Part shown: one piece after another, positions 1 to 1,198 of the stretch
Layout of the letters: the number at the start of each line of letters is the position of its first letter
Position numbering within the stretch: position 1 is the first letter of the stretch
Assembly (NCBI RefSeq): GCF_003334385.1
Contig: NZ_QOWN01000108.1
Direction: 5' to 3' (one strand)
From: Escherichia coli
GTDB lineage: Bacteria > Pseudomonadota > Gammaproteobacteria > Enterobacterales > Enterobacteriaceae
DNA: 1,818 nucleotides
Translations under genes and position numbers: made by a program
Notes under the pieces: generated by a model
What the model saw: the letters and a program-made list of their open reading frames with translations, nothing else
The model's database searches: none
What the model was told of the DNA's origin: nothing

Positions 1-632
1 GCCTGCCGGGGCAGCAGTATGATGAGGAGTCCGGCCTGTATTACAACCGCCACCGCTATTATGACCCGCTGCAGGGGAGGTATATCACTCAGGATCCGAT
101 TGGGCTGAAGGGGGGATGGAATTTTTATCAGTATCCGCTGAATCCGGTTCAGTATATAGATTCAATGGGACTGGCATCAAAATATGGACACTTAAATAAT
201 GGCGGATATGGAGCGAGACCCAACAAACCGCCTACGCCCGATCCAAGTAAATTGCCGGACATAGCGAAACAATTAAGACTGCCATATCCTATTGACCAGG
301 CCAGTAGTGCGCCTAATGTTTTCAAAACATTCTTCAGAGCATTAAGCCCTTACGACTACACACTGTATTGCAGGAAGTGGGTAAAACCAAATCTGACTTG
401 TACGCCACAGGATGATTCCCAGTATCCAGGGATGGATACAAAGACAGCAAGTGATTACCTGCCACAGACAAATTGGCCAACAACTCAATTACCACCAGGA
501 TATACTTGTGCAGAACCCTATTTATTCCCAGACATTAATAAACCCGATGGGCCAGCAACAGCAGGGATAGATGATTTGGGTGAAATTTTAGCTAAGATGA
601 AACAGAGAACATCGAGAGGAATAAGAAAATGA
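1..632 (+). CDS. Rhs-family polymorphic toxin, 3' end (5'-partial; codons in phase from position 3): conserved Rhs core terminus plus variable C-terminal toxin (CT) domain; stop TGA 630-632
   Basis: The frame is open from the window start to 632. Translation begins [57 protein letters not shown], which matches the conserved terminal block of the RHS repeat-associated core domain (E. coli RhsA-type cores end ...[30 protein letters not shown]...NP....DPLGL). The ATG at 165 given by the ORF track is internal (Met inside the demarcation motif), not the true start. Whether this is a full-length rhs or an orphan fragment (possibly ybfO/rhsO of E. coli K-12) cannot be decided from the window. Confidence 0.9.
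54..173 (+). other. Rhs core C-terminal signature block, ending in the core/CT demarcation motif [10 protein letters not shown] (144-173), a variant of the canonical PxxxxDPxGL
   Basis: Direct translation: [40 protein letters not shown]. Established knowledge: in Rhs/YD-repeat toxins the PxxxxDPxGL motif marks the end of the conserved core and the start of the variable toxin domain. Confidence 0.85.
174..629 (+). other. Variable C-terminal toxin (CT) domain of the Rhs protein, about 152 aa, activity unknown
   Basis: Sequence after DSMGL: [42 protein letters not shown]...[22 protein letters not shown]. It is proline-rich, has 3 Cys, and shows no HNH, HxxD, deaminase or other catalytic motif I can recognise by eye. 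Hand-counted GC is about 42% in 241-300, against about 59% in 1-120. Confidence 0.7.
614..619 (+). promoter_or_regulatory. Ribosome-binding site for the immunity gene, located inside the 3' end of the toxin ORF
   Basis: AGAGGA at 614-619, 9 nt before ATG 629. Confidence 0.6.
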
Positions 633-685
633 AAAGAGTTTTGTTCTTTTTGCTGATGATATTTGTTAGTTTTGGTGTTATAGCT
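629..685 (+). other. Predicted Sec signal peptide (19 aa) of the immunity protein; alternatively an uncleaved N-terminal membrane anchor
   Basis: [19 protein letters not shown] followed by DCEIQA. There is no lipobox (no L-x-[GAS]-C; an Asp separates Ala from Cys), so it is not a lipoprotein signal. Confidence 0.55.
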
Positions 686-1198
686 GATTGCGAAATACAA
701 GCTAAAGATCATGATTGTTTTACTATTTTCGCTAAGGGTACTATTTTTTCCGCGTTTCCTGTCTTAAATAATAAAGCCATGTGGAGATGGTATCAGAATG
801 AGGACATCGGTGAGTATTATTGGCAAACAGAACTGGGTACATGTAAAAATAATAAATTCACACCAAGCGGGGCGAGACTCTTAATTCGCGTCGGGTCACT
901 ACGCCTTAATGAAAATCATGCCATCAAAGGAACGTTGCAGGAGTTGATAAATACAGCAGAAAAAACGGCGTTTCTCGGCGATCGGTTTAGAAGTTATATA
1001 AGAGCGGGTATCTATCAAAAAAAGAGCAGTGATCCAGTTCAGTTGTTGGCAGTCCTTGATAATTCAATCATGGTAAAATATTTTAAAGATGAGAAACCAA
1101 CTTATGCTCGAATGACAGCACATCTCCCGAACAAAAATGAGTCTTACGAATGTTTAATAAAGATACAGCATGAACTAATTCGTAGTGAAGAGAAATAA
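629..1198 (+). CDS. ybfC: Putative Rhs immunity protein (RhsI-like), 189 aa, with N-terminal signal-peptide-like segment; uncharacterised
   Basis: ATG at 629 overlaps the toxin stop (ATGA, 629-632). A Shine-Dalgarno-like AGAGGA lies at 614-619, 9 nt upstream of the ATG. The N-terminus [22 protein letters not shown] has a basic n-region, hydrophobic core and V-x-A before the predicted cleavage site. Position immediately 3' of an Rhs CT domain is the canonical immunity-gene location. Hand-counted GC is about 30% in 631-720. The symbol ybfC is a tentative recollection of the E. coli K-12 189-aa YbfC downstream of ybfO and needs BLAST confirmation. Confidence 0.85.

Follow-up and report, generated by a model that had tools for sequence, protein, structure and literature searches.

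The rhsC locus of Escherichia coli, flanked by kdp/ybfA on one side and by ybgA/phrB on the other, contains the stretch of DNA analysed here (1,818 bases of contig NZ_QOWN01000108.1, referred to below as the window). Over the whole window the sequence is the same (100% identity) as in a K-12-type E. coli chromosome (O16:H48), where it is annotated as an RHS fragment, ybfC and ISAs1 fragments. Bases 1-632 hold the 3' end of an Rhs gene that has lost its N-terminal part; this gene is the K-12 'orphan' that lies downstream of rhsC-ybfB (ybfO) and is annotated in E. coli genomes as an incomplete RHS repeat-associated core protein. The open reading frame (ORF) at 629-1198 on the plus strand is ybfC, which encodes a protein of 189 amino acids (WP_000832338.1). 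Our subject is the pair formed by the C-terminal tip (CT) of this Rhs gene and YbfC, and the cell compartment in which the two would act.

The ybfO-ybfC module and its linkage

NCBIfam profiles detect the Rhs core in the translation of bases 3-629 (RHS_core, E 7.7e-32; Rhs_assc_core, E 2.5e-20; both covering residues 1-57), and the boundary between core and tip lies at the second motif, DSMGL, which ends at base 173. An Rhs polymorphic toxin cassette is recognised by an Rhs core with DPxGL motifs at its end followed by a variable tip, and this is the arrangement found. The GC content is 55% in the Rhs core and drops to 30-44% over the CT, ybfC and the spacer, a fall commonly seen at Rhs tips. 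Bases 174-1198 probably form a single cassette in which an E. coli Rhs element carries toxin and immunity gene together, the 'ybfO-ybfC' module of the rhsC locus. The features of the region are as follows.

1-173, plus strand: 3' end of the Rhs core in reading frame 3, from NCBIfam profiles, with the motifs DPIGL (93-107) and DSMGL (159-173).
174-344, plus strand: linker with which the CT begins, rich in proline and little conserved, variable in two alignments (A2 and A4).
345-632, plus strand: core of the CT toxin domain, conserved in alignment A4, about 95 amino acids plus the TGA stop, with a basic C-terminal tail (..RGIRK).
616-632, plus strand: signals for translational coupling, with GAGGA at 616-620 and the ybfC ATG (629-631) overlapping the toxin TGA (630-632).
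629-685, plus strand: predicted Sec signal peptide of YbfC, residues 1-19, from rule-based analysis and conservation in 27/27 family members.
686-1198, plus strand: mature YbfC, 170 amino acids plus stop, a predicted beta-sandwich and presumed periplasmic immunity protein.

A GAGGA Shine-Dalgarno sequence lies 8 nucleotides upstream of the ybfC ATG; together with the ATGA overlap between the ybfC start and the toxin stop, it points to translational coupling of the two genes. A scan for promoters and terminators found sites no more numerous than in shuffled sequence, and no independent ybfC promoter can be claimed from it.

YbfC belongs to a small family: a word-indexed search of 5.8 billion proteins returned 49 matches, every one of them from Enterobacteriaceae and not one having a relative defined in Pfam, and sequence and profile searches of YbfC against Pfam, NCBIfam and the PDB gave no significant match. 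The 27 members examined comprise 21 full-length proteins (59-92% identity) and six distant ones (22-33%), the latter reached via the toxin, by fetching the contigs that encode five distant CT homologues. At all five of these loci (CT identity 34-40%) the gene that follows the CT homologue is a YbfC homologue, with products of 188-207 amino acids that align to YbfC at 22-33% identity. The YbfC-like gene overlaps the end of the toxin gene at four of the five, three of which (L004, L007 and L008) have the same 4-nucleotide ATGA overlap as the window, and it starts 2 nucleotides after the toxin gene at the other (L011). At L007 two tandem YbfC-like genes (3735-4301 and 4404-4976) follow one orphan CT homologue, an arrangement that, to judge from gene order, is that of an orphan toxin with an immunity array; this orphan sits downstream of a full-length Rhs of 1643 amino acids with a different tip. 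The 189-residue ORF had been put forward as the immunity candidate of the Rhs tip, and in its ATGA overlap, its Shine-Dalgarno sequence and its linkage at five of five distant loci it behaves as a cognate gene would.

It could be objected that YbfC, though secreted, has nothing to do with immunity and merely travels with the Rhs tip, being, for example, an accessory protein or an adhesin-like one with an immunoglobulin (Ig) fold. The predicted fold, a generic Ig-V-like beta-sandwich, leaves room for such a role, no reports of neutralisation were found, and a Mantel test for co-diversification, comparing pairwise identities of toxins with those of immunity proteins, was not significant (n = 6, r = 0.25, p = 0.22), a result that we do not use as evidence. 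Yet the YbfC gene lies directly 3' of the CT, and is translationally coupled to it, in every diverged locus examined; there is no other immunity candidate between the two genes, the tandem duplication at L007 resembles an immunity array, and the pair moves jointly between rhs loci. We therefore regard this alternative as very unlikely.

The CT and ybfC are chromosomal and present in single copy in 3615 of 5426 complete E. coli genomes. The pair is also found at the end of complete Rhs genes: in strain 300709 it ends a full-length Rhs of 1399 amino acids at the rhsC locus, and in strain AR_0015 a 96%-identical copy ends an Rhs of 1395 amino acids at the rhs locus next to nik, so that the same CT/ybfC pair occupies two different E. 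coli rhs loci. Between the 300709 and AR_0015 alleles the ratio of nonsynonymous to synonymous substitution rates (dN/dS) comes to 0.10 in the CT and 0.26 in ybfC, a rough estimate from a single pair, by which both genes are under purifying selection. In a derivative of E. coli O157:H7 86-24 (L013, 3249-8014) a full-length Rhs with this tip and its ybfC are both annotated as frameshifted, the shift in ybfC being one extra T in the T-run of the signal-peptide codons (MKRVLFFF...); toxin and immunity gene appear, from this record, to have been inactivated together.

Predicted export signal, cysteines and predicted fold of YbfC

The original prediction had read the N-terminus of YbfC as a Sec signal or a membrane anchor. 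We assessed export with a rule-based script and by conservation, rather than with a trained predictor such as SignalP. The n-region (MKR) has a charge of +2, and +1 or +2 in 27/27 family members; it is followed by a hydrophobic stretch of 16 uncharged residues (best 8-residue Kyte-Doolittle mean 3.45; core length 9-18 residues across relatives) and by the site V-I-A, then D, after residue 19, with small residues at -3/-1 and no Pro at +1. Sites of the AXA type (AIA, ALA, AMA, ASA, AFA, LYA) occur at positions 18-23 in 27/27 members, and the N-termini of the 21 full-length proteins always consist of M-K/R-R, a hydrophobic stretch and A-x-C. The n-region charge, the h-region, for which about 7-16 residues are usual, and the AXA site are thus all as expected of a Sec signal of the signal peptidase I type, and these three regions are kept in every member down to 22% identity. 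Consistent with this, AlphaFold2 leaves residues 1-18 of YbfC unstructured or at low confidence. Among three metagenomic relatives (P0099-P0101) of L009 (1496-2065), nearly identical mature parts are joined to divergent N-terminal peptides that keep signal-peptide character; divergence of sequence with conservation of physical character is a pattern typical of signal peptides, and here it suggests recombination or rapid turnover limited to the signal-peptide region. The export signal as such is not new: ybfC already has the annotation 'putative secreted protein' (PMC6033998). In AFDB, a Salmonella homologue bears the name 'Periplasmic protein'.

The first half of the earlier reading, a Sec-type signal, has thus held up, and the second half, a membrane anchor, has become the less likely one. 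An uncleaved YbfC would have its periplasmic domain tethered to the inner membrane by a signal anchor, and the toxin might then be membrane-acting, for example through a pore or an ion leak. Immunity proteins embedded in the membrane are typical of pore-forming toxins, the 16-residue stretch of YbfC is near the lower limit for a membrane span, and a helix at the end of the CT (134-151) is conserved, amphipathic and basic. In many homologues, however, only 9-13 uncharged residues are followed by Asp (as in FDAIA); this is too short to span a bilayer, and cleavage is therefore likelier than anchoring. All homologues also have small residues at -3/-1, and the CT has neither a hydrophobic nor a glycine-zipper segment. 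YbfC itself has no second hydrophobic segment (the maximal Kyte-Doolittle KD19 value past residue 28 is 1.0, and no more than 1.3 in all members). On balance we consider a tethered YbfC unlikely.

The mature part of YbfC had been described as holding four cysteines, in the contexts DCE, DHDC, GTCK and YEC, and these are Cys21, Cys30, Cys72 and Cys175 (codons 689-691, 716-718, 842-844 and 1151-1153). All four are invariant among the 21 full-length members. Cys30 and Cys175 are kept in every member, the distant ones included, and Cys21 and Cys72 are either both present (in the enterobacterial and two distant members) or both absent (in four distant members). This joint presence and absence of one pair, together with the invariance of the other, suggests that Cys21 is bonded to Cys72 and Cys30 to Cys175, in two disulfides, and hence that YbfC resides in an oxidising compartment. 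The proposal that the cysteines fit a disulfide-bonded periplasmic protein accords with this pattern, invariance or covariation in pairs being what periplasmic disulfides would be expected to show. Structure searches with the YbfC model gave nothing beyond generic Ig-V-like sandwiches from the PDB and uncharacterised proteins of about 190 amino acids from AFDB. From its primary structure and that of its relatives, YbfC is probably secreted and disulfide-bonded.

Cys21 adjoins the predicted cleavage site, and YbfC could in principle be a lipoprotein processed by Lgt/LspA at this residue. A formal lipobox (ISAC, LASC or IAAC) is present in four homologues (P0020, P0029, P0030 and P0031, from Kluyvera and other sources), in which Ala or Ser precedes this Cys, and some family members could, by this motif, be lipoproteins. 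For the E. coli protein itself we consider such processing extremely unlikely: the residue at -1 is Asp, and in most relatives D, N, T or Y, which are incompatible with a lipobox, and Cys21 is missing in four distant members and covaries with Cys72. The lipoprotein reading of the YbfC in the window was accordingly rejected, since I-A-D-C does not match the lipobox [LVI][ASTVI][GAS]C, which only 4/27 relatives match.

The CT, a putative toxin domain

The 155-residue ORF at 165-632, which contains the CT, is rich in proline (21 residues) and has, as had been noted, three cysteines, at residues 69, 79 and 115 (codons 369-371, 399-401 and 507-509). The core of the CT is marked by the motif SPYDYT.YC.KW (S-P-Y-D-Y-T-x-Y-C-x-K-W). 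In the numbering of alignment A4, positions P61, C68, W71, P109, C114, A132 and D136 are invariant, and S60, D63, Y64, C78, D96 and G111 nearly so; C78 is present in 18/19 aligned CT sequences, and Asp63, Asp96 and Asp136 are conserved. The alignment has no conserved His. The domain ends in the amphipathic, basic helix mentioned above (DSSP helix 134-151), which is conserved; it contains no hydrophobic segment (maximal KD19 0.14) and no glycine-zipper.

The domain is rare. A CT profile searched against 1.84 billion representative proteins gave only 28 matches, and every match with an N-terminal part on record is fused to an Rhs core. Searches of the CT, alone or as a profile, against Pfam, NCBIfam and the PDB gave no match, and no nuclease, deaminase or ADP-ribosyltransferase signature was seen in it. 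In the available part of the supplements of a survey of Salmonella type VI secretion system (T6SS) effectors, the strings SPYDYT and EYYWQTE and the name ybfC had no match. At the level of sequence, this evidence argues against the usual nuclease, deaminase and ADP-ribosyltransferase tips. The original prediction, which had argued against a cytoplasmic nuclease-type toxin, agrees with what the CT retains and lacks: three kept cysteines, no conserved His and no nuclease signature.

Proposed site of action and comparison with known systems

Taken as a whole, the observations are best explained, and we think probably correctly, by a ybfO/ybfC-type Rhs tip that acts in the envelope, in the periplasm, and is neutralised there by exported YbfC. 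The gene identity, the linkage, the signal-like N-terminus, the cysteine conservation, the rarity of the two families and the absence of a family match for either were observed directly, and from them we infer export, cleavage, disulfides, binding, a periplasmic site of action and T6SS delivery. The CT (about 150 amino acids) would be the cargo of the Rhs cage. In strains with a full-length Rhs it would presumably be fired by the T6SS into a neighbour's periplasm, where its small cysteine-containing core would fold, probably with DsbA of the target cell introducing a disulfide, and would damage or block some envelope component. Translation of YbfC would be coupled to that of the toxin gene; the protein would be exported via Sec, cut after Ala19 and oxidised to a two-disulfide beta-sandwich (Cys21-Cys72, Cys30-Cys175), which would bind the CT directly in the periplasm of immune cells and so neutralise it. 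The K-12 toxin lacks its N-terminal part and cannot be delivered; in K-12-like genomes the main role of ybfC would be to protect, by itself, against kin with the full-length form. The presumed link to the T6SS rests on general knowledge of enterobacterial Rhs proteins and on the locus L004, where the homologous module adjoins a VgrG-type gene (Gp5_C) and a DUF2169 gene. A signal peptide on the downstream gene is routinely used for assigning a periplasmic target (PMC10469887).

Several points weigh against a periplasmic toxin of this kind. The AlphaFold2 model of the CT is poor, with a predicted local distance difference test (pLDDT) score of 58.7 overall and below 50 in the linker, and the predicted structure matches no fold; with a model of such low confidence and no fold match, no activity can be named. 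The number of cysteines in the CT is odd, the covariation of those in YbfC may reflect only one or two evolutionary events, and the Mantel test described above was not significant. Pfam PAAR was not significant on the N-terminus of full-length E. coli Rhs (E = 0.18), a protein in which DUF6531 is present, and K-12 has, to our knowledge, no T6SS. The literature searched contained no localisation, toxicity or binding experiments on the CT/YbfC pair and no functional study of ybfC or ybfO. Finally, published work places the action of PAAR-linked Rhs effectors almost exclusively in the cytoplasm (bioRxiv 10.1101/2024.02.26.582050; PMC12994826), which sets a prior against a periplasmic Rhs toxin.

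This prior bears most directly on the idea that the toxin is cytoplasmic and that periplasmic YbfC intercepts it in transit, blocking its import across the inner membrane. The T6SS is thought to place many effectors in the periplasm first, which counts in favour of interception. An exported immunity protein would, however, leave the producer's own cytoplasm unprotected, and the CT has conserved cysteines and no recognisable signature of a cytoplasmic enzyme; we also know of no Rhs system in which a toxin is intercepted in transit through the periplasm. Even with the prediction that Rhs and PAAR-Rhs effectors are almost exclusively intracellular (PMC12994826; bioRxiv 10.1101/2024.02.26.582050), we hold interception to be quite improbable, and somewhat more so than a membrane-tethered YbfC.

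The architecture and the logic of a periplasmic CT neutralised by exported YbfC are known from periplasmic effector/immunity pairs and from Rhs cassettes; it is their combination that is unusual. An Rhs-encapsulated toxin that acts on the envelope exists in Pseudomonas aeruginosa, where Tse5 (RhsP1) forms a membrane-depolarising pore and its immunity protein Tsi5 resides in the envelope. Tse5 has a hydrophobic CT that forms pores, and Tsi5 is integral to the membrane, whereas the E. coli CT has no hydrophobic segment and YbfC resembles a soluble periplasmic protein. Colicin M/Cmi and pesticin/Pim are likewise pairs of a periplasm-acting toxin and an exported immunity protein, but they differ in their receptor- and Ton-dependent import and their known enzymatic activities, and no sequence or fold relation to the CT or YbfC was detected.

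The T6SS pairs Tse1-Tsi1, Tae-Tai, Ssp2-Rap2a, Ssp4-Sip4 and Tox-Act1/Imm-Act1 act in the periplasm and have Sec-exported immunity proteins; as here, a small immunity gene with a signal peptide lies directly downstream of the toxin gene. Their effectors are free-standing cargo with known enzymatic folds (amidase, acyltransferase and others), in contrast to the CT, which is the tip of an Rhs cage and has no recognisable fold or catalytic motif. Effectors with cysteines can depend on DsbA of the target cell: Ssp2 and Ssp4, T6SS effectors of Serratia that act in the periplasm, need it, and the cytoplasmic Rhs2 does not (PMC5792426). For Tox-Act1, toxicity is seen only if the protein is sent to the periplasm (PMC12994826). 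With the classical enterobacterial Rhs-CT/RhsI modules (Dickeya RhsA/B, Salmonella Rhs-main/Rhs-orphan, Serratia Rhs2 and E. coli RhsA), the ybfO-ybfC module shares the Rhs core with its DPxGL end, a polymorphic tip, the low-GC cassette, the downstream immunity gene and orphan copies able to recombine onto the main gene. The tips of those modules are nucleases, ADP-ribosyltransferases or deaminases, and their immunity proteins are cytoplasmic and lack signal peptides (PMC12994826; bioRxiv 10.1101/2024.02.26.582050), unlike YbfC, which is predicted to be exported and disulfide-bonded.

A more specific proposal is that the CT is the founder of a new and rare, non-enzymatic or otherwise unconventional fold, that is, a PAAR-type Rhs cargo with oxidative folding in the periplasm and an envelope target, paired with a new two-disulfide, Ig-like immunity family; we put this forward tentatively, with slightly less than even confidence. 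If true, the pair would depart clearly from the rule by which Rhs tips are enzymes of the cytoplasm, and would do so in two-thirds of E. coli genomes, laboratory strains included; it would widen the range of Rhs-cage cargo and might reveal a new vulnerability of the envelope. There is also a practical consequence. K-12 carries the module, as does Nico21(DE3), a BL21(DE3)-derived strain (NZ_CP053600.1), at 98.8% identity, so that common laboratory hosts would be protected when this CT is assayed for toxicity, and a CT directed to the periplasm could give a false negative in them as long as ybfC is not deleted.

Two further features of the region may be recorded. The main RhsC of the K-12-type chromosome (L001, 3562-8081) has a cysteine-rich tip, with about 11 cysteines within its last ~150 residues, and the 108-residue product of ybfB, downstream of it, contains several segments that are strongly hydrophobic (KD19 up to 2.7); to judge from these sequences, the toxin of the main RhsC may also be directed to the envelope or membrane. 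Downstream of ybfC the window holds an ISAs1/H-repeat fragment, ybfQ (1424-1660, within an ORF at 1424-1678), and the start of a further ISAs1 copy at base 1804. A direct repeat of 158 nucleotides (1281-1438 and 1661-1818; 95% identical, spacing 380 nucleotides) corresponds to the upstream region and first codons of two successive ISAs1/H-repeat transposase genes. The ybfQ gene ends after about 79 codons, precisely at the start of the second repeat copy, which suggests that an insertion, nested or in tandem, or else a deletion took place between H-repeat elements.

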